A DNA stretch of 64,000 nucleotides from an uncultured cyanobacterium (GTDB taxonomy: Bacteria; Cyanobacteriota; Cyanobacteriia; PCC-6307; Cyanobiaceae): NCBI GenBank assembly GCA_903858015.1, contig CAIOGZ010000045.1, forward strand, positions 7,178 to 71,177, read 5' to 3'. A model generated the notes under the pieces. It was given only the letters and a program-made list of their open reading frames with translations, ran no database searches and had not been told where the DNA came from. A program made the position numbers and the translations under genes. Positions 1-13,714 of the stretch are shown here, in pieces (the first letter of the stretch is position 1; each line of letters begins with the position of its first letter).

Positions 1-712
1 GCGGTGGGCTGACTGGCGGGGGCGGCAGCGAAGGGCAGAGCTGGGCAATGATCGAGGGCGATGGGCGCCCTGCCAAGAGGCGCAAGGTCATGGCGCTGGG
101 GGTGCGACTCGCTGCTGAAAAGCGCAAATCAAAACTAACGCGGCTGCTATCGGTTTCGTTGGCGACACTGCCATGGGACAGCAAGCCACCGTCAAAAAAG
201 AGGGCCTGACCAAGGCGAACTTGAATCGGTTGATAATGTTCGCTTCCGTAGTTGTCCTCCACCCAGAGGGTGTTGCCAGCGAAGCAATTGGTGGCTGGCA
301 GCCAGATGTTGATCTGCTCCAATCGACCGGTGACGTTGGCGTCACGGTGCCAGCGACTCACCGAGCCTGAGCCGGCGAGATGGACCCGCATTTTGGGGCG
401 GGCCGCATAGGATATGCGACCACCAAAATAACGGACCACCAATTCATGCACAAAGCGTGTGTAGATTGTATAGAATTCCGAGCTCAATGGCAGGCGTTGC
501 ATCGCTTGGCGCAGGCGCAGATTATCCGGGTAGCCAGGCGGAGTGCCTGGCTTGCAAAGGTTACTTTGATGCAGGTTTTCCAGGTCATCAACCCGGAAAA
601 CCTGATCGCGAAGATAGCGAGCAAAGGGATAGAGTTCTGGGTCGTAGTTGAGCAACCAGGCCGATTGCATTCCAGGCACCTGGCTCCAGCTCTTGAGCGA
701 GTTGTCAGTCAT
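1..712 (-). CDS. Fe(II)/2-oxoglutarate dioxygenase (StrG/PhyH-like), 3' end runs off the window; absent from ORF track
   Basis: Hand translation from the ATG at 712 gives an open frame to the window edge (MTDNSLKSWSQ...). It has HxD in SRWHRDA and a distal His plus RxS in LSHGSVANETDSSRVSFDLRF. The ATG overlaps the TGA of the upstream methyltransferase (ATGA, 709-712). Confidence 0.75.
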   Translation of the reverse strand, partial: MTDNSLKSWSQVPGMQSAWLLNYDPELYPFARYLRDQVFRVDDLENLHQSNLCKPGTPPGYPDNLRLRQAMQRLPLSSEFYTIYTRFVHELVVRYFGGRISYAARPKMRVHLAGSGSVSRWHRDANVTGRLEQINIWLPATNCFAGNTLWVEDNYGSEHYQPIQVRLGQALFFDGGLLSHGSVANETDSSRVSFDLRFSAASRTPSAMTLRLLAGRPSPSIIAQLCPSLPPPPVSPP

Positions 713-3051
713 GGCAATAGCTTGACCAGGCTACGATTCACGATCTGGGCATAGAGAGAGGCACGCTCCCACTTATGCCAGATCATCCCGCCCATCGCCC
801 AGGGCGATTGGGCCTGGGCGCCATACAACTGCTGCCAGGCAACAGGTGTAAGACCAAACTCCGGTTGAGGTCGCAGCACCCCCTCGCTCACCGGCACCAG
901 GCCCACGAGCGCTTGACCATCCACCTGGCCATGGAGCATGGGGTGCAAGGTGATCGGATCAAGCAATAGCGATACTTGCCCCTGCCGCGCCCAGGCCGGT
1001 CCATCGCTCCAACTAATCTGATCGTGCTGCCACTGGCCTGGGGTAGCGATGCCATTCAGGGCCAGACTGTCCGCAGTGAGCCGCAGGCTGCGCAGCACAG
1101 GATGCCCCTTGAGCACAAATTCGCCGCGAAGGGATTGGGCCACTTGAGCATCCTTCTGCCAACAGCCATCGAGTGCAAAACGCTGGTTGCCGCAGAGCAG
1201 GTGGCGGCCCTGCAAGGCAAGAGCACCGGCTAGCTGGCTGCCATTGAGGCTCAGGTTCAAGCAACGGCCCTGGTCGCCCTGGTCGCAGACCTCCAGTACC
1301 AAACGGCCGGCGTCGGAGCGATAGCTGCCCACCGCCATCGCCGGATGCTGGCGGCCAGGAAGCACCTCATGGAACACGAGGCGGTGGTCGGCCGGTACGG
1401 CCTCGCCAGCGGGCCAGATACTGCCCAGCAAGCGCCGCTGGCCGCGGGTATCAACATCAACCCGTAGAAATCCGTGACTGGGTTGCGCCGACGTTGCCTG
1501 CCAACGCAAAACACCGCGCTTAAAGCGGAAATTGCTAATCAGCTTGCCCTGCAGCAACAACCGGGCCCGCGGGCCCTCGCCCAGCAACACCAACAACTGG
1601 TCGGGTTGGTTGGCCTGGTAGACGCCATTCCAGGGGAACAACAGATCGCGCTGGAGTAGGTCGATGTCGGTGCGCAACCTGCCCCATTCGCAATCGCCAT
1701 GGCCCGAGGCGGCCGCGAAAGCCTCCAAATCGGTGGTATCGCAGCGGCCCTGGCTAAGCAGTTGGGCGAGGCGGCGCAGCAAAGGGCGCTGCCGGAACAG
1801 GGCCTCCAACAACTGCCGATTGGCGGCGCAAACCACCTGGCTACCCTTGGCCGCCACCTGGAGAGCGCCGGCATCACGGCTGGCCAACAGGGTGCGCTCA
1901 CGGGCCGTGAGATCGGCAAATTCGGCGCTGGCCAGGGCGGCGTGGGGATTATCCCGGTAGCGATCGGCCAGTTCCTGATCGAGGCGCAGGGCGATCAAAA
2001 ACCGATTGGCGGCGGTTTCGCCTTGCCAGTGGTAACCAGCGGGCACCTGGAACTGGTGAAAGGCAGGAAAAGCCTTACGCTCCCGCGGGCCGTAGGTGCC
2101 GATCTGGCGCAGCGGCGTGGCCACCGGTTTGGGTTGCTGGCCAGGCTGCAACATGCCCAGCTGCTGCATCATCGTGGCGCAGGGAGCGGCGGTGTCTTTC
2201 GGGGCTAGATAAAAGGTGGAGATGCCCGTCACCTTGGCTTGGGTGTCGGGATCGTGCAGGGCACTGAGGGGATAGTGCTCGATCACGGGCGCGATCGTGG
2301 GGAAGCGGGAAGCGATGTAGTTGGTAACCTGGTAGTCGGGGCCATAGTGCTGCTGTAGATAGGAAACAAAAATGGAGAAATTATCATTGATATAGCCCTT
2401 GCGGCGATAGCCCATCTCACCGATCAAGCCCACCTGCCAGAGCACCACATGCAGCTGGGTCGAGGGCAGCCGTTTGCGGATCAGCATGTCGGTAGCCTCA
2501 TGCATTTGCATGCCTGGATGGGCGGGATCCACGCCGAGATCGGCGCACAGACAATCCAAGGCCGACACACTGGGCCGCATCACGGCATGGTGGCCCTCGC
2601 GCCGGGCGATCTGAATGGCACGGTGGGTGGAAAGAACAAAAATACCGGGATGGCCGTAGTAAATCGCCACTACCTTCTTGCCCTGACGAAGCGGGAATAA
2701 CATCGCCTCGGTCATCTGCATGTAGGTGGTGTAACGCACCTTGCTGTCGTCATAGAGCACATAAAGATCGAGGGCGTCCGGCCGCCGTTGCTTGATCCAG
2801 GTAACGGTGGCGGGATCGGCCACGCAGAAGAACACGGCGTCGGCGCCAAGAATCAGCTCTTCATCGCCGAGGGTGAAGCCGAGGATGCCGATGCCCGAGC
2901 CGATGATCGTGAGGCTGCCGGGCTGCTGGGGAGGGGTGGCGGCAGGTGCTTCCTGAATGGCATCGGCCTGGGCGGCGATCTGGGCAGCCAGCTGCTGCCA
3001 GGCCCGGGCATGGTGCTCCTGGCTGGGTAAACGATTGGGGGTGATGGTCAT
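709..3051 (-). CDS. Borosin-family SAM-dependent peptide alpha-N-methyltransferase with BBD/LigA-like helical bundle and long C-terminal extension
   Basis: GSLTIIGSGI, VADPAT, LYDDSKVRYTTY (Tyr/Arg/Tyr catalytic set as in OphMA), YYGHPG, SALDCLCADLGVDP, EAT, WQVG and STFYLAP all follow the borosin methyltransferase pattern. A BBD-like segment follows (ANRFLIALRLDQELADRYRDNP...LTARERTLL). Likely start is the ATG at 3051. Confidence 0.85.
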   Translation of the reverse strand: MTITPNRLPSQEHHARAWQQLAAQIAAQADAIQEAPAATPPQQPGSLTIIGSGIGILGFTLGDEELILGADAVFFCVADPATVTWIKQRRPDALDLYVLYDDSKVRYTTYMQMTEAMLFPLRQGKKVVAIYYGHPGIFVLSTHRAIQIARREGHHAVMRPSVSALDCLCADLGVDPAHPGMQMHEATDMLIRKRLPSTQLHVVLWQVGLIGEMGYRRKGYINDNFSIFVSYLQQHYGPDYQVTNYIASRFPTIAPVIEHYPLSALHDPDTQAKVTGISTFYLAPKDTAAPCATMMQQLGMLQPGQQPKPVATPLRQIGTYGPRERKAFPAFHQFQVPAGYHWQGETAANRFLIALRLDQELADRYRDNPHAALASAEFADLTARERTLLASRDAGALQVAAKGSQVVCAANRQLLEALFRQRPLLRRLAQLLSQGRCDTTDLEAFAAASGHGDCEWGRLRTDIDLLQRDLLFPWNGVYQANQPDQLLVLLGEGPRARLLLQGKLISNFRFKRGVLRWQATSAQPSHGFLRVDVDTRGQRRLLGSIWPAGEAVPADHRLVFHEVLPGRQHPAMAVGSYRSDAGRLVLEVCDQGDQGRCLNLSLNGSQLAGALALQGRHLLCGNQRFALDGCWQKDAQVAQSLRGEFVLKGHPVLRSLRLTADSLALNGIATPGQWQHDQISWSDGPAWARQGQVSLLLDPITLHPMLHGQVDGQALVGLVPVSEGVLRPQPEFGLTPVAWQQLYGAQAQSPWAMGGMIWHKWERASLYAQIVNRSLVKLLP

Positions 3052-3223
3052 GGTGTTGTGAAACGGTGGGGAAGTTTTAAAAGGCAGGATGAGCAAAAGA
3101 ATGCAGCAAAAGGTTCGCCGCAGCCATAACGATCAAATGGCTGCGAGTCTTCAAATAAGCGAATGAATGCCACGCCACGCCTCAATAGCCAACAACGGTT
3201 GCTAGCCGGAAGCGAAACGGAAA

Positions 3224-5569
3224 CTAAGCGGCGCTACTGCCACTCAGGGTCATAAGGCTCCACTGGGCACTGGCGCAGTTGATCGCTGAACCCCAGCCGG
3301 TGGCCTGCAGCTGGCTCCAGCCGCTGCCGTTGTAATACTCCACCGCACCACTCCCGAGCCCTACCAGCACCTGGGGCTGGCCACTGGCGAGCCAGTTCGC
3401 CTCCATGCAGGTGACGGCAGACCCCCAGCCGATGCCCTGCAGCTGGCTCCAGCCGCTGCCGTTGTAATACTCCACCGCACCACTCCCGAGCCCCACCAGC
3501 ACCTGGGGCTGGCCACTGGCGAGCCAGTTCACCTGCATGCAGGTGACAGCAGACCCCCAGCCGGTGGCTTGCAGCTGGCTCCAGCCGCTGCCGTCGTAGT
3601 ATTCAACAGCTGAATCACCTAGGCCCACAACGAGTTGGAGCAGCGCATAGGGAGAGGTGATGGCCGAGAGATAGTTCAGTGATGTCTGGCACCCCACCAA
3701 GACCGGCGGGGAAACGTTGTTGTAGGTGTAGTTTGCCAAAAGATTATAGGCTTCGTATTGCTCACTGCTGCTGGCAAAGGCACTCATTTGGTTCACGAGC
3801 GCTGATTGCGCCTGCGGCGTCCATTGCCAACTATTGGCGGCATTTTGGGCTGTGCTATTTGGAGTAGAGAGAATGGAGCTAAGCACCATTTGCTGGCTGG
3901 TGATCGAAGGCTGCGCTTGCTGAACCCAATCGGCAAAGGTGCTCCAGCACTGCTGCGGGGTGTTGTTGGGATTGAGCATGTAATTCACCAGCAGCCCCAA
4001 GCCTGTGGATTGCTGTGGTGCCATCGAATTCATATCGTCGACCGCAGCTGTTTTCCAGACGCCAAGCAATTTCTGGGCCGAAATCATGCAAAACACAATT
4101 GCCAAATTGTCCACAAGGGCTGGGAAACCCTTGTCCATGATCCAGCCGCCAAGCTGATTGAGCAGGGTGTTGACCCCGCCCTTGGGCACCTCAACGTCCG
4201 TGTCGGTATCCGTATCGATATCGGTGTCGGTATCTGTATCGGTATCCGTGACATTGTCGGTATCGGTGACAACGTCTACGTCGCTATCAATATCAACGTC
4301 AATATCAACATCTACATCAATGATGGCAAATACATCTACGTCAATATCAACATCTACATCAATATCGACATCCGTATCCACATCGGTATCAACAACGGTG
4401 TCAGTGTCTTCCACGATATCTGTGTCGATGTCCGTGTCAACATCAACATCCACATCAACATCGACATTGATCGGATCGATGTCTTCGCCCAGCTCCGCGA
4501 TCGGATCGGCGGTGGCAGCTTGGCTGGAAAGATTTTCATTGATCGAGGCTACCAGCTTGCCGAGGTTGCTGTAGAGGAAAGCCATGCCATTGGCTACACC
4601 CTCTAGTACAAATGCCGCCATGTTTAGCACCATCAGCAACTGCACGGTGCGAAACGACACGAAGGCCATGTCGTAGGCCGCCACCCACCAGGGGATGGTG
4701 GGATTGGCATAGGGCTGGGCGATCAGGCTGGTGCCATTCAACGTGCCGCTCAGACAGAGCACGATCTGATCAGGACTGCCCTCCCAGGACAAACTGCGCG
4801 GGATACCAGCCAGCCATAATCCTTGGGTACTGCTGCCCCCGCTTGAACTCAACACCCCACCGCTGACGCTTAGGGGTGGCGTGAATGCGGATGCGCTGGA
4901 GGTTTTGGCAGGTGCATAGCTGGCGGCGCCATTGGCAATCGTAAGGGTGCCAACGCTGACGGTGGGCAGCACCAGATTGCTGGTGGAGGTGGTATCTGGC
5001 TCAAAGCAGAAGTAGGTGCCACTCCAGGGGAAGAGGGTGTTGTTGGCCCAGTAGGCCAGGGCTGCCATCTGCGGTTCCGTGCCGCCAGCCATGCCGTTGG
5101 CAGTACAAAAGGCGGCAACGTTGGTTTCCAGCTCAGCCGGGCTGGTGGAGGTATAGTAAATTTCGCTAAATTGCAGGGCCAGTGGTGAATAGGGCTGGGC
5201 CATGGTCTGCAGGTAAAAGCTCCAGCAGGTCTGGGCTATGGCTAGATCTGCCTGGGTGACTGTGGTGGCCGCTTTCTTGCTGAGGGGGGGCACCCAGACC
5301 AGCACAGGAAATTCGTTGTCTTGTTGCGCCAGTACGAGCCGGCTGCTGGAAGTTGATGGTGTAAAAGTGCCACTGCCATTGGCGGGAATGACGGCAATCT
5401 GGGTGTAGGTCGGCGCATAGTCAGCCGATTCCGTGCTGGGCGGTGAGCTGGGGGGGTTGGCACTGAAGGTGTAGTACACAATCAGCGGGGTGGCCAGCTG
5501 GTTGGTTACCGTGAGAAGGTTACTACTGCTCGATGAACTGGAACTGGTCGAACTTCCTGAAGCTGTCAT
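3224..5569 (-). CDS. Large protein with internal Asp-periodic (D-V/I/T)n tract, flanking hydrophobic helices and 3 C-terminal Trp-rich repeats; candidate borosin substrate
   Basis: ORF 3224..5608, likely start ATG 5569. About 95 aa of DVDVDTDID-type tract sit between two apolar helices. No signal peptide. Lies directly upstream of the methyltransferase on the same strand. Confidence 0.7.
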   Translation of the reverse strand: MTASGSSTSSSSSSSSNLLTVTNQLATPLIVYYTFSANPPSSPPSTESADYAPTYTQIAVIPANGSGTFTPSTSSSRLVLAQQDNEFPVLVWVPPLSKKAATTVTQADLAIAQTCWSFYLQTMAQPYSPLALQFSEIYYTSTSPAELETNVAAFCTANGMAGGTEPQMAALAYWANNTLFPWSGTYFCFEPDTTSTSNLVLPTVSVGTLTIANGAASYAPAKTSSASAFTPPLSVSGGVLSSSGGSSTQGLWLAGIPRSLSWEGSPDQIVLCLSGTLNGTSLIAQPYANPTIPWWVAAYDMAFVSFRTVQLLMVLNMAAFVLEGVANGMAFLYSNLGKLVASINENLSSQAATADPIAELGEDIDPINVDVDVDVDVDTDIDTDIVEDTDTVVDTDVDTDVDIDVDVDIDVDVFAIIDVDVDIDVDIDSDVDVVTDTDNVTDTDTDTDTDIDTDTDTDVEVPKGGVNTLLNQLGGWIMDKGFPALVDNLAIVFCMISAQKLLGVWKTAAVDDMNSMAPQQSTGLGLLVNYMLNPNNTPQQCWSTFADWVQQAQPSITSQQMVLSSILSTPNSTAQNAANSWQWTPQAQSALVNQMSAFASSSEQYEAYNLLANYTYNNVSPPVLVGCQTSLNYLSAITSPYALLQLVVGLGDSAVEYYDGSGWSQLQATGWGSAVTCMQVNWLASGQPQVLVGLGSGAVEYYNGSGWSQLQGIGWGSAVTCMEANWLASGQPQVLVGLGSGAVEYYNGSGWSQLQATGWGSAINCASAQWSLMTLSGSSAA
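3260..3640 (-). repeat. Three tandem 44-aa repeats (VGLGxxAVEYYxGSGWSQLQxxGWGSA), beta-propeller-blade-like
   Basis: Near-identical 132-bp tandem units are visible at DNA level. Confidence 0.85.
4190..4485 (-). repeat. Coding low-complexity (Asp-X)n tract, X = V/I/T
   Basis: DIDPINVDVDVDVDVDTDIDTDIVEDTDTVVDTDVDTDVDIDVDVDIDVDVF...DTDTDVEV, with mixed synonymous codons. Confidence 0.9.
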
Positions 5570-5646
5570 CACAAGGGGGCTGCAATGGTATTGAGGGGAA
5601 AGCCCCACTCCCTTAGAGGTGGGGCTGCAGATTGACCTTTAGCGGC

Positions 5647-8607
5647 TTATTCGAGATCAGCTAAATCACCAAGGTCACCATCCCCATCTCCATCCCCATC
5701 TCCATCCCCATCTCCATCACCATCACCATCACCATCACCATCACCATCTTCATCTTCCTTTTCCTGCTCATCCGATTCGTCAGCCTCTTCTTCTGACACC
5801 GTATCTTGTTGTTTAATAACATTGGCTGATGCTGCATCGCCTAAAGAGACATTCTCGTCTGCGATTGCTGTTTGATTGTCAGCAATACTAGTCTGAATAT
5901 TTTCCAGAGTTTCGCTAGCTTCACTTGATTCAGGATCAACCTCTTCTAGTTGATCCCTATCGGATTCTATTGTGGAGTTTTCAGCTTCGGTTGCCGGGTC
6001 GTTTTCTAATTCTTGCTGACTATGCACTTCACCGGCTTGTTGTGAGAGCTCTGCCTCCTCAATTGCCTCGTCATTTGCGTTAATGACAGTATCTTCACTG
6101 ATTTCACCTCCATCAACCGCCTCATCCTCTTCGTTTTCGGCGTTCTTGACCGACGGCTCGTCACTGGCTTGTGCCTCGCTCAGGCTATCGCCTGTCTTTA
6201 CCTCTTCATCAATGCCGGCGTCTTCCGCTTTCTCCTGAGCATCGTCCCTGAGCTCAGCTTCCTTGTCAGCGATCTCCTCTGAAGATGGATCCTCCCCACT
6301 CTCGCATTTTTCTTTGATCCAATCAAAGGTATCTCTCATGCAATCTATTCCAAATTTGAGCACCATGAGCAGCTGAAAAGCTTTAAATGCGTTAGAATTC
6401 ATAGCCCTATCAAAGGCTTTTCCTTCCTTGGCTGAAAATGTCCTGCTCAAATCTATTGGCGAGCCTATGACATTGGTACCGTTGATCAACCCAACTAACG
6501 CTTGAATGGGTATGCCCGTATCGTCTGAATTACCAGTCATTTGGGCCATGTCCACAAAGGTGCATTGCAGGCAGATGGCGGTGAATCCATCGCTATTGGC
6601 GTTAACCAACTGTTCATCCACGAAGTTGAGGCTAACGGACTTACTGCCTGTTGGATTCCAGTTGATTGAGTACCCCGCATTGGCATCGGAAACTGCAGCC
6701 AGCGTGGGTCCTGATTGGGTGAATACCACTGTGCCCAAGGATTTATATTGCTCATTAACTTTCACACTTGTGCTGCCAGTGGTACTGCTGCTATCACTGG
6801 TATCTGGAGTGACAGTGTAAAAGTTGTATGTATAAGTGGGCTGAAAATTTGCCCAGGCGTAGGCGTAGGCCGAGAGGTAGCTGCAGACCGCGCTATAAAT
6901 CTGGAAATTTACATTCTGGTAATTGCTTGTCTGTGCAAAGAACAGATCGACATTTGTAGCTTCAGCTGTTCCAGCACTACAATCTGCGTTCAACGCAGCC
7001 GTAAACTGCTGGGCCTGAGCGGATGAAGGATAAGCCATTATGTTCTGCTGAAATACATAGGCATTGGCAGCAGAACTTGAGTTGCATGGTGCTAGCGGCA
7101 ATACCGGTATGGCCGGAAATGTAAACATTCCCTTATCTTCAGCAACGGTAGCAACCGGAAAGTAATTATTGGATTGGGAAAGAAGAAGGGTGTAGCTTTG
7201 ATTAACTTGAGTGTCGTTTTCAGGTTCAAGATAGGGCAATAAATCAAGGGTCCCAGTTTCGCCTAGCGGTAGAACATTCGACATTGTATTAATCTCATTT
7301 TGGCTGGTAGTGCCCTCAGAGATGAAGCTGAGTAGAATCAGATTGCTCTGGAGATAACAGACTGTAGTTGCATTGGTGGTGTTATAGCCGCTTATGACCA
7401 CGATGCCTCCGTCCCATCCTGTTTGGGCTGGCGTATTTGGGTTGGTGGGCAGAATCAGATTGTTGTTGACGGAGCAGGTGTTTTGTGGCGTGGTGCTGCC
7501 ATTCAAGGGCGACACGGCCCACTGGGCACTGCCGCATGCAATCGCCGAGCCCCAACCCGCGCCCTGTAGTTGACTCCAGCTCGAGCCGTCAAAAGACTGA
7601 ACGGAACTATCGGCCAGGCCAACAATGATCTGGGGGTTCTCAAGACCGAGCCAACTCACCTGCAGGTAGCCTGCGGAGCTGCCCCAGCCGCTGCCTTGCA
7701 ACTGGCTCCAGCTGCTGCCGTTGTAATACTGCACCGAGCCATCACTCAGAGCCACCACCACCTGGGGAGCGCCACTAGCCGGCCAGTTCACCTCCATGCC
7801 AGTCACAGAGGAGCCCCAGCCCGTGCCTTGCAGCTGGCTCCAGCCATTGCCGTTGTAATACTCCACCGCGCCGCTGTTCAGACCCACCACCACCTGCGGA
7901 TCGGCTGATGTCCACTGCACCGCCAGCTGGCCGGCATTGGAACCCCAGCCCGTGGCCTGCAATTGGTTCCAGGAGCTGCCGTTGTAGTACTGCACCGATC
8001 CGTTGCCCAAACCCACGACGACCTCAGGCGTGCCGGAACCGTTCCAATTCACCGCCAGCGAACCTACGGAGTTCTTCCAGCCTGTGCCTTGCAACTGGCT
8101 CCAGCTGCTGCCGTTGTAGTACTGCACGGAGCTGTTGCCCAGCCCCACCACCACCTGGGGATTGCCACTGGCCGGCCAATTTACCTCCATGCAATTGACA
8201 GAGTTGTCCCAGCCCGTGCCCTGCAGCTGGCTCCAGCCACTGCCGTTGTAATACTCCACCGCACCACTGCTGAGCCCTACCACCACCAACGGATTGGCGG
8301 ATGTCCACTGCACCGCCAGCTGGCTGGCACTGGAATCCCAGCCCGTGCCCTGCAGCTGGCCCCAGGAGCTACCGTTGTAATACTGCACGGAACTGTTCCC
8401 GAGCCCGACGACGATCTGCGGCGTGCCGTACTCACTGAAAGTCACCGCCATCGACTTCACAGAGCTGGACCAACTCGTGTCTTGTAATTGACTCCAACCG
8501 CTGCCGTTGTAGTACTCCACGGCAGCATCGCCGAGTCCCACGACGATCTGAAGCTGCGGGGAAGTTGGACTGGTGGTGCTGGTGACTGATGCTGAAGATT
8601 GAGTCAT
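5647..8607 (-). CDS. Large protein: 8 N-terminal Trp-rich propeller-like repeats, central domain paralogous to the 3224 protein, long acidic tail ending in (DG)12
   Basis: 986-aa ORF. FQQNIMAYPSSAQAQQF aligns with FYLQTMAQPYSPLALQF, and AFKAFQLLMVL aligns with SFRTVQLLMVL of the neighbour. No signal peptide. Confidence 0.75.
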   Translation of the reverse strand: MTQSSASVTSTTSPTSPQLQIVVGLGDAAVEYYNGSGWSQLQDTSWSSSVKSMAVTFSEYGTPQIVVGLGNSSVQYYNGSSWGQLQGTGWDSSASQLAVQWTSANPLVVVGLSSGAVEYYNGSGWSQLQGTGWDNSVNCMEVNWPASGNPQVVVGLGNSSVQYYNGSSWSQLQGTGWKNSVGSLAVNWNGSGTPEVVVGLGNGSVQYYNGSSWNQLQATGWGSNAGQLAVQWTSADPQVVVGLNSGAVEYYNGNGWSQLQGTGWGSSVTGMEVNWPASGAPQVVVALSDGSVQYYNGSSWSQLQGSGWGSSAGYLQVSWLGLENPQIIVGLADSSVQSFDGSSWSQLQGAGWGSAIACGSAQWAVSPLNGSTTPQNTCSVNNNLILPTNPNTPAQTGWDGGIVVISGYNTTNATTVCYLQSNLILLSFISEGTTSQNEINTMSNVLPLGETGTLDLLPYLEPENDTQVNQSYTLLLSQSNNYFPVATVAEDKGMFTFPAIPVLPLAPCNSSSAANAYVFQQNIMAYPSSAQAQQFTAALNADCSAGTAEATNVDLFFAQTSNYQNVNFQIYSAVCSYLSAYAYAWANFQPTYTYNFYTVTPDTSDSSSTTGSTSVKVNEQYKSLGTVVFTQSGPTLAAVSDANAGYSINWNPTGSKSVSLNFVDEQLVNANSDGFTAICLQCTFVDMAQMTGNSDDTGIPIQALVGLINGTNVIGSPIDLSRTFSAKEGKAFDRAMNSNAFKAFQLLMVLKFGIDCMRDTFDWIKEKCESGEDPSSEEIADKEAELRDDAQEKAEDAGIDEEVKTGDSLSEAQASDEPSVKNAENEEDEAVDGGEISEDTVINANDEAIEEAELSQQAGEVHSQQELENDPATEAENSTIESDRDQLEEVDPESSEASETLENIQTSIADNQTAIADENVSLGDAASANVIKQQDTVSEEEADESDEQEKEDEDGDGDGDGDGDGDGDGDGDGDGDGDLGDLADLE
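5674..5748 (-). repeat. (Asp-Gly)12-Asp coding repeat
   Basis: GAT-GGN hexamer repeats; 25 codons counted directly. Confidence 0.9.
7519..8559 (-). repeat. Eight tandem 43-44 aa repeats (PQVVVGLxxxxVxYYNGSxWSQLQGTGW), probable 8-bladed beta-propeller
   Basis: Eight units counted in the translation; same consensus as the 3260-3640 repeats. Confidence 0.85.
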
Positions 8608-8753: not shown

Positions 8754-10733
8754 TCATCGCTGCGCCACTAGATACCAGCCGCCACTTCCTTGAGGCCGCC
8801 AGCGCGGTTCCCAGTTGGCATAGGAATAGTGCTGGCGGGCACCATTGTGGTTTTGGGGATAGCCGCCATTCACCAAATCACAGCTGCCGTAGGGATCATT
8901 CATGATCACGCCGCTGGCGTCGTAGCCGATCACCACGGTCCAGTGGCCCCCGCCGCTCGGCGCCGATGGCGGGCCGTTGATCAGCCAACCCACCGCCACC
9001 GGGCGGCCCGCATCGATCTCACTTTTGATGGTCTGTAAGGTGCCATCGGTACGGAACTCCGCCTTCAGGCCCAGGTGCCGCAGCGCCGCAAGCTGGGCCT
9101 CAGAGGTGGTGGAGTCGCCGTATTGTTGGCGCAGAGCGTTGTAATCATCTTCGTTGGGTTCCTTGCCCCAGTAGGCGGCAAGCATGGCCGAACTGGCTGA
9201 GAAGCAATCGCGCCATCCCTGGCCATCGTCCATGGCCAGTTGGTCGAACCAGGGCACGTTGAGCGGATTGGGATGGGGGGCAGCAACTGCAGTGGCTGCT
9301 GTGGCAGGCCGATCGACTGCCCTAGGCCCGCCGCCGGTACCGAGCTGGCCTGGAGGGGTTCGGCTGGGTTGGCCGGCGCTAGCGGGTTGGGCCGCTGCGC
9401 TAGCCAAGCTGGCCATCCCCTGCTGCCACAGATCGGCCTCCGCCTGACGGCGCCGTAGGAGCCCCGCCTGCACCGAACTGCCCGGATCGCAATACAGCAG
9501 GAGGGCTTCGGGTACCTCAGCCCAATCCTTTTCCCTGAGACGGCGGCTGATCGTATCGAAGCCGGCACCGCCATAGAAATCTTCACCCAGATTCCAGGCA
9601 AAGGAGATCAGGCAGCAGCGCTGATCTTCCGCCATGCCGCTCCAGTAGGGAACGCGGCTGGCTAGATGGCGGGCGCAGGCATTGACACCAGCGAGCAGTT
9701 GGGCATCGGCCTCGGCGCGGCTAAGGGTGTCACCGGGCTGCACCGGACGCCCATCAAGACTGGTGAAGCCGTAGCCGATCGTCCAGGGTTCATCGCCGCT
9801 GGCCGGATCCGGATAGGCGTGATCCACAAATCCTTCGAACTCGGCAATCAACTGCAAGGCGGGTTCATAGGCAGGCGCGGCATCGCGTTGGCCAACGGCA
9901 GGGTGGGCGGCAAGGGAGGCGGTAGGGGAGGTAGTAGGGGAAGCTGCAGTGGGCTCCGCAGCCAGTAGGGGCAGGCTCGCCGCCGGGCCTGCCAGCCGAT
10001 GGGGTGGGGTGATTGCGCCGTTCGGAGGCGCGGATCGGGCCAGGATTGGGCGCAACACTGGCCCAGGGCTGGACTCTGGAACCAGGGGCGCTGGCCGGGG
10101 CTGCAGCGCGATCGGATCCACAGCAACGGCAGCCGCTGCAGGCGACGGGCGCGATGGTTGCAGAAGGCCGGAAAACTTGTTGGCTACGTAGGGGGCAAAC
10201 AGGGTGAGACCCGAATAAAGAAAAGTGCTAACAGCCACACTGGATGCGGGCATCTGACAGGTGAGTCCAAAGGTGTAGAGCGAAAAAACACCAAAGCCCA
10301 GATAGATCAAAAGAATCGCCACCATGCCCGCCAGGGCAATCAGTCGGCTGCTGCTGGCCTCCATTAGGATCACCGACGTGGGAGGGCCGTGCGGCGCGAG
10401 GGCCTTGATGCGAGCCTGGCTATCCCCCTGGGATTGCGCCCAGTGCTCGTCTAAAGGAATCGAGAGATGGGTGGGCTCGGAGATGGCATTGGCAAGCGAC
10501 CAGCCACTGCGCTGCAGCCGCCAATAAATCACGAAAAGCGTGACAACAACAGCGGTGAAAATGCCGGTGCTGATCGCCATCACCAGCTCGGGCCCCATGC
10601 TTCGGCAGAGGCCAGCGGCACCACCTAGCTGCTCCTGGGCCGCCGCAGGAAGCGAAAAGCCAAGCAACAACAAACAGACCATCAGCTTGGATCTGGATGG
10701 CATGATCAGCCGAACAAGTTTCAGATTCTTCAT
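8754..10733 (-). CDS. Membrane-anchored fusion: N-terminal multi-TM region, Pro-rich linker, GH24 (phage-type) lysozyme, C39-like peptidase
   Basis: Signal-like and 3 TM-like segments at the N-terminus. LIAEFEGFVDHAYPDPASGDEPWTIGYG fits GH24 E..D..T. LNVPWFDQ...DCFSAS, GHWTVVIGYD and NDPYG fit Peptidase_C39_2-like Cys/His/Asp. Confidence 0.8.
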   Translation of the reverse strand: MKNLKLVRLIMPSRSKLMVCLLLLGFSLPAAAQEQLGGAAGLCRSMGPELVMAISTGIFTAVVVTLFVIYWRLQRSGWSLANAISEPTHLSIPLDEHWAQSQGDSQARIKALAPHGPPTSVILMEASSSRLIALAGMVAILLIYLGFGVFSLYTFGLTCQMPASSVAVSTFLYSGLTLFAPYVANKFSGLLQPSRPSPAAAAVAVDPIALQPRPAPLVPESSPGPVLRPILARSAPPNGAITPPHRLAGPAASLPLLAAEPTAASPTTSPTASLAAHPAVGQRDAAPAYEPALQLIAEFEGFVDHAYPDPASGDEPWTIGYGFTSLDGRPVQPGDTLSRAEADAQLLAGVNACARHLASRVPYWSGMAEDQRCCLISFAWNLGEDFYGGAGFDTISRRLREKDWAEVPEALLLYCDPGSSVQAGLLRRRQAEADLWQQGMASLASAAAQPASAGQPSRTPPGQLGTGGGPRAVDRPATAATAVAAPHPNPLNVPWFDQLAMDDGQGWRDCFSASSAMLAAYWGKEPNEDDYNALRQQYGDSTTSEAQLAALRHLGLKAEFRTDGTLQTIKSEIDAGRPVAVGWLINGPPSAPSGGGHWTVVIGYDASGVIMNDPYGSCDLVNGGYPQNHNGARQHYSYANWEPRWRPQGSGGWYLVAQR

Positions 10734-10754
10734 TTCAATAACTGCGATAGTTTC

Positions 10755-11666
10755 TCAATGGGTGGAATCAGTTGTCGACGCTTTGTGGATCAAGACGGCG
10801 GCCTCTTTGACAGCGAATTGATCATCCATGACAAAGACTGGAGTGTCATTGAGGGCTAATTGCTGATCAACAAAATCGAGGAAAGCGCCCAGCTGATAGC
10901 GATCACGCAAGGACAGCCGCTCGGATCCACTCCCATACTCCTGATTGGCAATCGCTGTAGCAAAGCTGCGGGTTAGTGCAATCGTCTGCTTGTAAAGACG
11001 AGCGCTTATCTGTTGATTGCTTTTCAGATTGAAGGTGTTGATCGTCACCACCGCCATACCCAAGGCGAAGCCCGAGGCCACCAGCACGCTGAAGGGCCAA
11101 CGGATCTCCGTCTGCAAGCCATGCAGACTGAGCAATGCCAGCATCGTTGCCGACAGCATTGCCGCCGCATTGGCCATGCCAACCAAGGCCTGATAGTTTG
11201 CAGAAAAAATCTGCATACTCTGGCAATGGTATTGATAAAGCTCCTTCAATTCAATGGCCTGTCGCACTAGGCGTTGCCTCTGCAGAGGAGACGCGGTTGG
11301 CAATGCCAAACCCAACTGCTGAAGATTGATGCTGGTGCCCAGCGGCAGCGGGTCGCCTGGTTGTTGGTGCTGCTGGGGATCGGGTTGCAGCAACTTGATT
11401 GGGACCCTGTTGCAATAACCTAAATTGCGTTGGCGGCTCTGGGCCGCCTGGCGGTATACCACAACGAGGGCGAAGGCCAACGCCAGGATGGCGCCCGCCA
11501 GCAGCAGATGGCCAGCCGTACTGAGCCGTAGTCTCCGGCCAGCTTGCTGCATCCCTTGGCCCACCAACCTGGCATGGTTGGGTAGCTCGCCTGCATCCAC
11601 GCTTGCCTCCATCAGCAACCGCCTGATCGCCATGCCTGGGCCTTGGCGCTCGATCGCCTGGGTCAT
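10755..11666 (-). CDS. Hypothetical membrane protein (3 predicted TM helices; C-terminal 2TM part SLATT-like)
   Basis: Hydrophobic segments LLLAGAILALAFALVVVY, NAAAMLSATMLALLSL and FSVLVASGFALGMAVVTI. First gene of the minus-strand run. Confidence 0.55.
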   Translation of the reverse strand: MTQAIERQGPGMAIRRLLMEASVDAGELPNHARLVGQGMQQAGRRLRLSTAGHLLLAGAILALAFALVVVYRQAAQSRQRNLGYCNRVPIKLLQPDPQQHQQPGDPLPLGTSINLQQLGLALPTASPLQRQRLVRQAIELKELYQYHCQSMQIFSANYQALVGMANAAAMLSATMLALLSLHGLQTEIRWPFSVLVASGFALGMAVVTINTFNLKSNQQISARLYKQTIALTRSFATAIANQEYGSGSERLSLRDRYQLGAFLDFVDQQLALNDTPVFVMDDQFAVKEAAVLIHKASTTDSTH

Positions 11667-12322
11667 GGGCTGCAGCCGTTACAGGAACTAGCCAGCAAGG
11701 GCAAAGCGATGCAATAACAGCTTGAGGCGCCGGCGGGGGTGAATGAACTGGAACTTGCTAGCAATGCCATGGGTGATGCACCTGCTGGAAGGTTCTGGAG
11801 CTGATTTTCTCTGTCTAAGGTGAATCAATGGACAGCATTCGAATGGGCTGGGTTGAGTCCGGCTCAAGCGATTGCCGTATCCATCGATCGAACAATGAAC
11901 CACCTCGCCCCAGCTGGCCAATCATTTCTGAAATCTTTCAAAGCCCTGCCCCATCCAGCTCGCCGCGGCCCTTCAGCTTCGGTACCAGCTCCAGCTCCAA
12001 CCCCAGCTCCAGCCTCGGCTGCAGCCCGAGCCCCGGCATCGCCTGCCCATCGACCGACAGGGCGAGGAAGAGAAGCATAGGAATAAGAGTATAAACTCAA
12101 CATTCGCAAGTAAAGTACAATTTCAACCCCAACATCGAAACCCTGCCCCAAAGGTCCAGTTTCGGCTTGACAGCATGGCCACAGTTTTGCCAAAATAGTT
12201 ACTGGTATGCTTAAAATAGCCTCACCCGCCTGCGCCCCCCCTAGCCATGCATGCATACTGATCGGCCAGCTTTTGCCATCAATGAGGATGTCCGATTCTT
12301 GTTTCGCTAGCCATGGCAGCTC

Positions 12323-13714
12323 TTGGCCCCAACTCCTCGTGCTGGCTGGCTAATCGGCCCCTATCGGCTGACCATTTTAGGAGAGCTGAGCCTAGGTGGA
12401 TCCGGAATCAATATCATGCCTTTGCAGCGAGAGTTGCTGCTCATTTTTGCGCTACAACCCAGACAAATCCTAACGCAACAGGAGCTTATTAGCCGGCTCT
12501 GGCCGGATCAACAACCAACCAAAACCCAACGCCCTGCCCTCAGCTTAGCCGTGCACCGCCTGCGCCAGGTCTTCGCCCAGGGCCCCCTGGGGACCGAGGT
12601 GATTCGGAGCATCTACGGCAAGGGATACAGCTTTGAGGCCCCAGTTGAACCGATGGATACGCCCGAACCGAAGCCGAATGGGTCGCCATCTGCCCCGGCA
12701 AGCGCCAGCAACGAAACCGCTGTCCAAGCCTATGATCGCAGCATGGCCAGTCGTCTGTTTTATTTTGAGGCCCATGATTACTGGCCCAATCGCGATCCCT
12801 ATCGCCTGCCTCGTCAGCAATGGCTGCTGCAGCAGAGCGTTGAACATGATCCCAACTTCAACCAAGGCCGGCTGGAGCTTTGTTATTTTCAGCTACTCCA
12901 ATGTCTCTGGGGTGTGCGTACCGCCGCCAGCACGCTGCCCGATTTACAACAGTGCCTCGATCTAGGCGATCAGCAGGACAGCCAAGCCCCGGGCTGGGCC
13001 GCGATCAAAGCGGAAACCTTGTCGTTACTGCTCTGGCAACCGCAAACCAGTCAGCGCCTTTATGGCAGCTGGCTGGGTCCAACCCTGCCTGCCGGATTGC
13101 CGCGCTTTGCCTGGGCCCGCCACCTGATTTTCACAGGAAAAGCGCGCCAGGCCCTGCGGCTGCTTGCTCAACTACTGCACCAAGACCTCAGCCAGGGCTG
13201 GTTGGTGCTATCGCTGGCCCATTGTGCCCTCGGCGACATTGCGGCCGCCGAGCAGGCGGCCGAACAACAGTTGCGGGTGAATCCAGCCCTGGTGGGCAGC
13301 AAATTGTTTCTGGCCATGCTGGTGGCCCTGCGGGGCGAAGCTGAGCTGGCCACGAAGCTGGTGGAAGAGAGTGGCATCCTGGAACGGCCGTTTCAAGGCT
13401 CCCTTTCGATGGTGGCCTATGCGCTGGCCCACGGCAGGTTGGCCAAACGAGCCCACCAACTCTTGGATGAGGCCCTGGCCCTGATTAGCCAGGATCCCGA
13501 TGCGGCCGGCGCCCTCGGCTACTGGGGGTTGGCGGCCCTGGCCCTGGGTCGCTCCTATGAAGCGATCGGCTTGCTCAAGCTGAGCGTGCGGCGCCGCTGT
13601 TATGCCGCCCCGGTGTTGATGGCCACCCCCTTTCTCCACCCCCATGCGCCAACCCCGGCCGGCCAACTATTTCGCGAGCGCATGGGCCGTGCCTTCGTGA
13701 TCGCCCCCAAATAA
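12323..13714 (+). CDS. Transcriptional regulator, OmpR/PhoB-type winged helix plus TPR-like sensor
   Basis: ILTQQELISRLWP...LSLAVHRLRQ...IRSIYGKGYSF (Trans_reg_C pattern), then helical TPR-like repeats. Divergent from the borosin cluster. TTG start uncertain. Confidence 0.8.
   Translation: MAPTPRAGWLIGPYRLTILGELSLGGSGINIMPLQRELLLIFALQPRQILTQQELISRLWPDQQPTKTQRPALSLAVHRLRQVFAQGPLGTEVIRSIYGKGYSFEAPVEPMDTPEPKPNGSPSAPASASNETAVQAYDRSMASRLFYFEAHDYWPNRDPYRLPRQQWLLQQSVEHDPNFNQGRLELCYFQLLQCLWGVRTAASTLPDLQQCLDLGDQQDSQAPGWAAIKAETLSLLLWQPQTSQRLYGSWLGPTLPAGLPRFAWARHLIFTGKARQALRLLAQLLHQDLSQGWLVLSLAHCALGDIAAAEQAAEQQLRVNPALVGSKLFLAMLVALRGEAELATKLVEESGILERPFQGSLSMVAYALAHGRLAKRAHQLLDEALALISQDPDAAGALGYWGLAALALGRSYEAIGLLKLSVRRRCYAAPVLMATPFLHPHAPTPAGQLFRERMGRAFVIAPK

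Follow-up and report, generated by a model that had tools for sequence, protein, structure and literature searches.

An endolysin-type fusion protein and a three-helix membrane protein as a candidate release module for leaderless proteins in a freshwater picocyanobacterium

A gene pair within a cargo-bearing genomic island

How large leaderless proteins exit Gram-negative cells is only partly understood. Here, we analyzed a 64,000-nucleotide stretch of DNA from an uncultured cyanobacterium of the Cyanobiaceae (assembly GCA_903858015.1, contig CAIOGZ010000045.1, positions 7,178 to 71,177; in the following, the window) with regard to two neighboring genes, named A and B, that precede genes for large proteins (Table 1). 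A first-pass annotation, made from the letters of the window, had described B as a holin-like transmembrane (TM) domain fused to a lysozyme and a C39-like peptidase and A as a three-helix (3-TM) protein, and had proposed that the two form a release route for the large proteins downstream. The TM helices and both catalytic domains of B were confirmed to lie in a single open reading frame (ORF) with intact catalytic residues.

Read along one strand, A is followed after 21 bp by B, after 146 bp by a gene for a protein of 986 amino acids (aa), after 38 bp by one of 794 aa, and after 127 bp by a methyltransferase gene, which overlaps by 4 bp with an oxygenase gene. No terminator-like site was found in the same-strand gaps of this array, which, judged from its sequence, appears operon-like. 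Together with a divergent regulator gene, A, B and the cargo genes make up a single block of about 13.7 kb between nadE and ald, the oxygenase-like gene being the last before ald (alanine dehydrogenase). The flanks at the orthologous locus are housekeeping genes, with nadD and nadE on one side and ald on the other. In two genomes of the same genus (G146 and G064) the block is absent and the gap between nadE and ald measures 65 bp. The island of regulator, A, B and cargo is one unit. A third genome of the genus (G093) carries an unrelated insert of 14.8 kb at the same site (G093:C1:3459755-3474537, locus L123), which contains insertion-sequence transposases, glycosyltransferase-like genes and a gene for a secreted Ser/Thr-rich protein.

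The ORF list and Pfam searches revealed no transporter genes within the island. In a scan against the PHROG phage families, A and both large proteins matched none, and B matched only endolysin and unknown-function families. This agrees with the initial remark that phage structural genes are lacking nearby.

Table 1 Features of the island and their positions in the window
Feature	Position	Strand	Description
Gene A	10755..11666	minus	303-aa 3-TM membrane protein, unannotated family
Gene B	8754..10733	minus	659 aa; fusion of membrane module, GH24 and C39_2-like domains
B, aa 1-190	10164..10733	minus	Signal peptide and membrane module, independent domain family
B, aa 191-289	9867..10163	minus	Pro/Ala-rich linker, variable in length and sequence (alignment)
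B, aa 290-440	9414..9866	minus	Predicted GH24 (T4/P22-type) muramidase domain, E300/D309/T318
B, aa 441-488	9270..9413	minus	Second linker, Ala/Pro-rich (alignment)
B, aa 489-659 and stop	8754..9269	minus	C39_2-like papain-fold peptidase domain (predicted), C510/H597/D613
Divergent regulator	12323..13714	plus	OmpR/PhoB-type winged helix and TPR-like C-terminal region, HilA/SARP-like
Conserved upstream region	11667..11950	minus	About 285 nt directly 5' of A (DNA alignment)
Cargo 1	5647..8607	minus	986 aa (translation); blade repeats, acidic tail
Cargo 2	3224..5608	minus	794 aa (translation); D[V/I/T] repeat tract, blade repeats
Borosin-type N-methyltransferase	709..3096	minus	TP_methylase PF00590, E = 2.4e-9; long C-terminal extension
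2-oxoglutarate (2OG)/Fe(II) oxygenase-like gene	2..712	minus	Weak PhyH and TIGR04324 matches

The catalytic half of B

Pfam searches placed a Phage_lysozyme domain (GH24, PF00959; E = 1.9e-19) at aa 298-432 of B and a Peptidase_C39_2 domain (PF13529; E = 5.3e-13, above cut-off) at aa 491-615. Residues E300, D309 and T318 of the former, which we take to correspond to the catalytic triad of T4 lysozyme, and C510, H597 and D613 of the latter were invariant in ten diverse homologues. The three GH24 residues (in the contexts FEG, YPDP and WTIGYG, respectively) were likewise invariant in B homologues, in leaderless short forms of B (see below) and in the phage protein gp054. In a sequence search of the PDB, the GH24 domain retrieved GH24 lysozymes and endolysins with E values down to 4.7e-15, and the C39-like domain retrieved nothing. 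The PHROG families matching B are phrog_10051, labeled 'endolysin' (aa 481-657, E = 8.9e-58), and phrog_3617 (aa 293-437, E = 9.8e-53). By tblastn, both domains occurred together, at 40-45% identity, in 98 records of Synechococcus phages, including S-PM2, S-CAM7 and S-CBS2. The S-CBS2 protein is gp054, 383 aa long and annotated as lysozyme; when aligned with B and the leaderless short forms, it displayed the same catalytic residues. By these sequence matches, the catalytic half of B is of the standard two-domain endolysin type of Synechococcus cyanophages, which makes peptidoglycan the most likely substrate of the C39-like domain.

Comparison with four orthologues gave ratios of nonsynonymous to synonymous substitutions (dN/dS) of 0.10-0.19 for the membrane module of B, 0.06-0.13 for GH24 and 0.03-0.12 for the C39-like domain; the linkers reached 0.46-0.66 (aa 191-289) and 0.46-1.5 (aa 441-488), and A ranged from 0.22 to 0.35. 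Thus, A and the three folded parts of B are under purifying selection, and the linkers are relaxed. More than 200 proteins share the three-part architecture of B, essentially all of them from Cyanobium- or Synechococcaceae-type genomes and freshwater metagenomes. Proteins with only a C39_2-like domain (about 260-350 aa), preceded by a short helical region as in phage lysins, are present in many genomes of the family at one to five copies per genome, in the present one for example at G000:C58:3400-4008 and G000:C6:44862-47498.

The membrane module of B

The N-terminus of B resembles a signal peptide and, in the alignment of ten homologues, carries a conserved LPAAAQE site. Hydrophobic helices follow at about aa 49-71, 128-157 and 165-183, and alignments revealed the conserved motifs GWSLANALSEPT, EASSSR, TCQMP and LFAPYVANK between the helices. 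A simple sum of insertion energies, based on the scale of Hessa et al. 2005, rated helices 1 and 2 as strong (about -2 kcal/mol) and helix 3 as marginal (+4.5 kcal/mol), and the core of the signal peptide appeared too short to anchor the protein stably. Without insertion of helix 3, the catalytic half would be Sec-exported and remain tethered in the periplasm, with which the Pro/Ala-rich tether of about 100 residues is consistent. Across 113 homologues, positive charges cluster ahead of the signal peptide and behind helices 1 and 3, and the loop between helices 2 and 3 has none. An AlphaFold model of full-length B from a ten-row alignment (mean model confidence, pLDDT, 44.6) was unusable for topology or disulfides. 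The additional cysteines of the GH24 domain (C353, C373 and C415), considered as a sign of periplasmic disulfides, are not shared with the B paralogue of this genome and were uninformative.

The module matched no family in Pfam, NCBIfam or PHROG, and on sequence grounds it is not a recognizable holin; 'holin-like', as in the first-pass annotation, is an interpretation of this multi-TM domain and not an observation. Its stand-alone relatives do not bear out the label either. Such proteins, 175-236 aa long, unannotated and without a PHROG match, occur in Undibacterium (L108 7001-7678), Rhodoferax (L110 7001-7645) and one cyanobacterium (L112 7001-7711). They carry a signal peptide and the motifs WSLADALSEE, ASSSR and LFAPY..NK, which indicates that the module is an independent family. 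Those of the freshwater Betaproteobacteria have housekeeping neighbors and no lysozyme gene nearby. In L112, the stand-alone gene lies directly 3' of an A-like gene (hhalign probability 98.9) in a men-gene slot. As hhalign detected no relation between the module and the A family, B is not a fusion containing an A-like protein.

Protein A

The hydrophobic helices of A (about aa 52-70, 161-179 and 191-209) recurred in 27 of 27 relatives and in the AlphaFold model (pLDDT 74.6), so that its description as a 3-TM protein holds. Two cysteines in the loop between TM1 and TM2 (C85 and C148) and an A-N-Q motif after TM3 are invariant. A itself had no match in Pfam, PHROG, PADLOC or a collection of phage genomes; A-like proteins were likewise without a PHROG match, Pfam scans of 14 members and 10 distant relatives gave no family, and a profile search of 1.8 billion representatives returned 278 clusters, none of them annotated.

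Foldseek searches of the PDB with the model yielded insignificant matches only, among which chains of MotA, ExbB and TolQ recurred (TM-score <0.35). In the BFVD collection, SLATT proteins led the list (best E = 0.019, probability 1.00; TM-score 0.43 by query and 0.62 by target, with predicted models on both sides), and 10 of the top 32 matches bore this name. SLATT domains (SMODS and SLOG-associating 2TM effector) are predicted membrane-perforating effectors of conflict systems. At the sequence level, the SLATT models of Pfam matched none of the 14 members (E up to 1) or 10 distant relatives, and hhalign of A with a genuine SLATT_1 protein was null. In genome G092 (L118 4950-6622, G092:C4), a C39-like gene is closely preceded, on the same strand, by a gene for a SLATT_1 protein of 243 aa. 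We rejected this pair as a supporting case: the C39-like gene is decayed by frame breaks and stops and lies in a patch of low GC.

In genomes without B, A-like genes were observed in an apparent operon with a gene for a protein of about 490 aa with an MpaB/Lcp-like oxygenase domain (L100 9292-11731, L101 6385-10061 and L104 7223-9395). The same family is also found a few genes away from pairs of A and a short form of B (L077 and L087).

Regulator and upstream region

The divergently transcribed regulator matched Trans_reg_C of Pfam (E = 2.5e-10) and lacks a receiver domain; its match to the NCBIfam HilA/EilA model (E = 1.1e-7) stayed below the cut-off. Regulators of the HilA/SARP-like kind are known from secondary-metabolite and secretion clusters. 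In five orthologous loci, about 285 nt before the start codon of A are conserved, and the remaining intergenic DNA is rich in indels. The conserved region gave no credible family in Rfam. As far as the sequence goes, it is probably a promoter with a 5' leader and may contain binding sites for the regulator.

The cargo proteins

In the 986-aa protein, eight blade repeats rich in Trp are accompanied by a central domain, a hydrophobic helix and an acidic tail that terminates in (DG)n; Pfam gave a weak beta-propeller match below the cut-off. The 794-aa protein combines a tract of D[V/I/T] repeats with three C-terminal blade repeats. Type VIII borosins have precursors of about 600 aa with D[V/I] repeats in mid-protein; lysozymes, peptidases and transporters do not appear in the paper defining them (bioRxiv 10.1101/2021.12.24.474128). 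From its sequence, the repeat tract of the 794-aa protein would be a borosin-like core of Type VIII. The methyltransferase and the oxygenase would tailor the two large proteins. Neither protein has an N-terminal hydrophobic segment, in line with the earlier statement that they lack signal peptides, and such a segment was absent from all cargo proteins examined. PADLOC recognized neither A, B and the regulator nor the cargo. The G+C content of the two large cargo genes (window positions 4000-8000) is 51-54%, compared to about 62% in B and up to about 73% in the surrounding genome.

Genomic settings of A and B

For a comparison across genomes, genes were called in 80 loci from a species-level genome collection and the neighbors were clustered (loci and genomes are cited by our L and G numbers). 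A full-length B locus counted as well-flanked if each side offered at least 3 kb, which applied to 26 loci.

B was found in three settings. In the first, it accompanies A and usually the regulator, and cargo was always present where the flank was available. This cargo varies. It comprises the borosin set in L009, L010, L018 and L022, a Jacalin protein of 1800 aa in L011 (Pfam E = 2.3e-46), and three 200-aa paralogues in L028 and L030. In L023, L025, L027, L031, L056 and L071, an NHLP-type peptide is joined by a CVNH-like acid-tailed protein, YcaO (Pfam E = 1e-66) and TfuA (E = 8e-42). The NHLP-type set (for example L025 12808-16706 and L056 9002-13000) looks like a cluster for a thioamide-type peptide that is made by ribosomes and modified after translation (RiPP); its CVNH-like protein is about 220 aa long, with CVNH-like repeats and a poly-acidic or (GDAA)n tail, which may be the substrate.

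The genes of this first setting occur in two orders (regulator in divergent orientation, A, B, cargo; or B, A, cargo, with the regulator reading towards them) at two chromosomal sites. Cargo-type genes were near B in 9 of the 26 well-flanked loci. A was adjacent and on the same strand in 8 of these 9, compared to 3 of the 17 cargo-less loci, and all six well-flanked B loci with a regulator also had cargo (6/6). The retention of regulator, A and B while the leaderless cargo changes is the genomic pattern that one would expect if the module served in release or processing.

In the second setting, B occupies a conserved slot (ndhH-thioesterase-B-menE) without cargo and sometimes with A. The third comprises other sites, in four of which B adjoins genes for TIR-nSTAND1-WD40 proteins. 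The B paralogue of the present genome (G000:C12:121500-124000; L014 9495-11963), whose (PPTPPPAPAA)n linker is much longer, adjoins such a gene, encoding 1271 aa, and this neighbor recurs beside B or C39-like genes in L040, L061 and L016.

In the leaderless short forms of B (about 440 aa), a middle domain lies between GH24 and the C39-like domain, and signal peptide and TM helix are lacking. In six of nine well-flanked short-form loci, amid housekeeping neighbors, the gene directly upstream on the same strand is A-like; by analogy, this would be the classic layout of a holin followed by its endolysin. Among 151 sampled genomes of the family, A-like genes were present in 10 and full-length B in about 3, and four genomes of the same genus had no full-length B. 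Since A and B are often found apart, both families can work alone, and their pairing appears lineage-specific.

A possible release function

We favor the reading that A and B form a chromosomal, non-phage envelope-opening pair for the release of leaderless products in a manner similar to type 10 secretion (see below), and assign it a probability of roughly 45%. For its steps, we infer the enzyme activities, the topology, the co-transcription, the membrane effect of A and the export of the cargo. The HilA/SARP-like activator would turn on the island from the conserved upstream region. B would be anchored in the inner membrane by its Sec signal peptide and small membrane module and reach the wall on its long Pro/Ala-rich tethers. 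There, the GH24 muramidase would cut glycan strands, and the C39_2-like peptidase most likely peptide stems or cross-links. A may perturb or gate the inner membrane while B, on its tether, makes a local opening in the thick peptidoglycan of the cyanobacterium, and the folded, modified large products would exit through the lysis of a subpopulation or a local breach. A wider proposal, that a tethered endolysin, a SLATT-like 3-TM gate and a HilA/SARP-like activator constitute a portable frame with swappable leaderless lectin-like or RiPP cargo, is put forward tentatively.

The release route first proposed is supported in part: A and B are intact, selected and not part of a prophage, lie in one island with leaderless cargo, and stand in a frame with different cargo at 9 of 26 loci. 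Other parts of the evidence weigh against it. Neither A nor the membrane module of B resembles any holin or phage protein, and the likeness of A to SLATT proteins, confined to the fold, with E >0.001 and absent at the sequence level, can serve as a lead only. The topology cues conflict: the charge pattern predicts a cytoplasmic catalytic half, and the marginal helix 3 and the tethers point to the periplasm. There is no ORF between A, B and the cargo, and no spanin among the four proteins scanned against PHROG, a dedicated search of the genome for spanins not having been made; nor was an outer-membrane component seen. Acid-tailed proteins could also be exported by a type 1 system encoded elsewhere. 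With respect to context, such cargo is missing at 17 of the 26 well-flanked loci with full-length B. Nine of these 17 reside in the ndhH-thioesterase-B-menE slot, the second B copy of this genome, without an A gene, among them. In the 151-genome sample, an A-like gene adjoins B in this genome only; the other A-like genes have the MpaB/Lcp-like oxygenase as a neighbor or stand by themselves in the men slot. Because the loci linked to cargo are close to one another in phylogeny, the counts do not represent independent events, and as the site between nadE and ald is a general island hotspot, the linkage of A and B to cargo could partly be hitch-hiking.

Alternative explanations

Several of these observations would also fit a general autolysin. 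B, with or without A, may be a domesticated endolysin for peptidoglycan remodeling in wall turnover, cell separation or stress-induced autolysis; its location at the front of the island would then result from insertion at the hotspot and not from a part in the release of the products. We give this explanation an appreciable but minor chance. The cargo-less majority of full-length B homologues, the 9 of 26 in the ndhH-thioesterase-B-menE slot, and the second copy there without A are as expected for it, and a tethered hydrolase exported via Sec by its own signal peptide, with a marginal helix 3, would need no holin. However, full-length B is rare (about 3 of 151 family genomes and none of the four from the same genus), which suggests an accessory rather than a housekeeping role. 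Moreover, regulator, A and B are kept in two orders and at two sites while the cargo is exchanged, and the spacing of 21 bp between A and B and 146 bp between B and the cargo, with no same-strand terminator-like site, speaks against this explanation.

It is improbable that A and B instead form a cell-suicide pair of an abortive-infection or conflict system, lysing the cell upon a danger signal, with the cargo being unrelated. The model of A may resemble SLATT effectors, and the TIR-nSTAND1-WD40 genes beside B paralogues or C39-like genes at four loci, including that of this genome's paralogue, point in this direction, as do the bona fide SLATT_1 gene upstream of the decayed C39-like gene in G092 and the sporadic, accessory distribution of the genes. 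Yet PADLOC matched none of A, B and the regulator, the island contains no sensor or nucleotide-signaling gene, and the SLATT link is weak and fold-only. The adjacent regulator, in addition, is a transcription activator of a kind known from secondary-metabolite and secretion clusters.

The chance appears slim that the C39-like domain is a protease of RiPP maturation, working at the membrane in the manner of the C39 domains of bacteriocin ABC exporters and cutting out cores, as the first-pass annotation alternatively suggested, or removing NHLP leaders. The borosin island, like the islands with NHLP, YcaO and TfuA genes, encodes no peptidase other than B, and the mid-protein core of Type VIII precursors has no known protease (bioRxiv 10.1101/2021.12.24.474128). 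One NHLP-type peptide (L025) contains a GG motif, but this is not conserved in that of L056. Pfam assigns the domain to Peptidase_C39_2 and not to the C39 of transporters, no ABC transporter is present, and the sequences nearest to the domain are C-terminal halves of endolysins from cyanophages. A muramidase is fused to it in every case, and B homologues and short forms without RiPP genes nearby have the domain as well, so that the proposed cutting out of cores has lost ground.

Finally, we rejected the idea of a decaying prophage lysis cassette, whose chance is negligible, on the grounds of purifying selection (dN/dS of 0.03-0.19 on the folded domains of B) and a housekeeping context without phage genes in the vicinity. 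Phage relatives are also lacking for the membrane parts. The catalytic half belongs to the endolysin type of cyanophages and is indeed encountered among their lysis genes, but the more than 200 full-length homologues share one architecture in chromosomal and not prophage contexts. The distribution that the first-pass annotation had named as evidence against release thus holds for the catalytic half and not for full-length B.

Implications

The type 10 route has been described mainly in enterobacteria and clostridia, within prophage cassettes. The present locus suggests that freshwater picocyanobacteria may have assembled such a device independently, keeping the phage enzyme, replacing the holin by unrelated membrane parts, and joining the whole to interchangeable cargo, one set of which is a Type VIII borosin set. 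In the wider proposal of a portable frame, a tethered cyanophage-type endolysin, a 3-TM partner and a HilA/SARP-like activator would be a new combination of parts. Were that proposal true, it would give cyanobacteria their first type-10-like route and large-precursor borosins the first route of export linked to them. The release reading, if true, would offer large-precursor RiPPs a step of export and activation that can be tested, a way to approach the role of the abundant leaderless lectin-like proteins of cyanobacteria, and a first functional context for two unannotated membrane families, A and the module of B. If it is false, the B family still represents a clear example of a domesticated cyanophage endolysin under selection in host chromosomes.

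Comparison with known systems

With the C39 domains of bacteriocin and RiPP ABC exporters (PCATs), B shares a predicted papain-fold Cys/His peptidase, a membrane location and RiPP genes as neighbors. It differs in being C39_2 instead of C39, without an ABC domain, fused to a muramidase and closest to phage lysins. The double-Gly leader of PCAT substrates was not conserved as a GG motif among the neighboring NHLP peptides.

The part of the A model that aligns with SLATT proteins of BFVD covers the last 190 or so residues of A, with a long helix, a TM hairpin and C-terminal helices. A possesses an extra N-terminal TM helix and the Cys-bearing loop, and its island has no nucleotide-signaling partner.

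Signal-arrest-release (SAR) domains are weakly hydrophobic helices rich in Gly, Ser, Thr and Ala that precede an enzyme. The weak helix 3 of B has this composition and lies upstream of the catalytic part; unlike a SAR domain, it is the third helix of a multi-helix module and about 100 residues away from the enzyme. The class I holin S105 of lambda has three helices with its N-terminus outside and its C-terminus inside, and the module of B would be of this kind after cleavage of the signal peptide. In contrast to class I holins and SAR domains, it measures 190 aa with a loop of 57 residues and is unrelated to holins in sequence, and the stand-alone modules are not located beside lysis genes.

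The endolysins of cyanophages (the 'putative lysin' of S-PM2, the lysin of S-CAM7 and gp054 of S-CBS2) have GH24 and C39_2-like domains in the same order as B, 40-45% identity to its aa 292-653, and the same catalytic residues. These phage proteins are soluble and leaderless, about 340-385 aa long and have a helical middle domain, whereas B bears the 190-aa membrane module and Pro/Ala tethers and is encoded in a chromosomal island without other phage genes.

Type 10 secretion denotes holin/endolysin systems that locally permeabilize the wall for secretion and are genetically linked to toxins without signal (PMC9527704). Examples are ChiWXYZ of Serratia, TtsA of Salmonella, the Tc lysis cassette of Yersinia and the clostridial TcdE/TcdL. 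Here, too, an endolysin-type hydrolase is encoded on the same strand as, and 146 bp from, the first gene for a signal-less cargo protein, a dedicated transcription factor adjoins A and B, and the cluster contains no transporter. A PhoB-like regulator reportedly controls the cassette of Yersinia entomophaga. In the literature consulted, the connection of type 10 secretion to cyanobacteria consisted of one passing mention in a review. The island departs from these systems in that it has no phage-family holin, that B carries a signal peptide and a membrane module of its own along with two catalytic domains, and that A, the partner, belongs to the 3-TM proteins, measures 303 aa and has no phage relatives. 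The host of the island is a cyanobacterium, and its cargo is lectin-like and of RiPP type instead of toxins or chitinases. Because neither membrane part is a recognizable holin and no spanin was seen among the scanned proteins, we count A and B as a candidate variant of type 10 secretion and not as a member.

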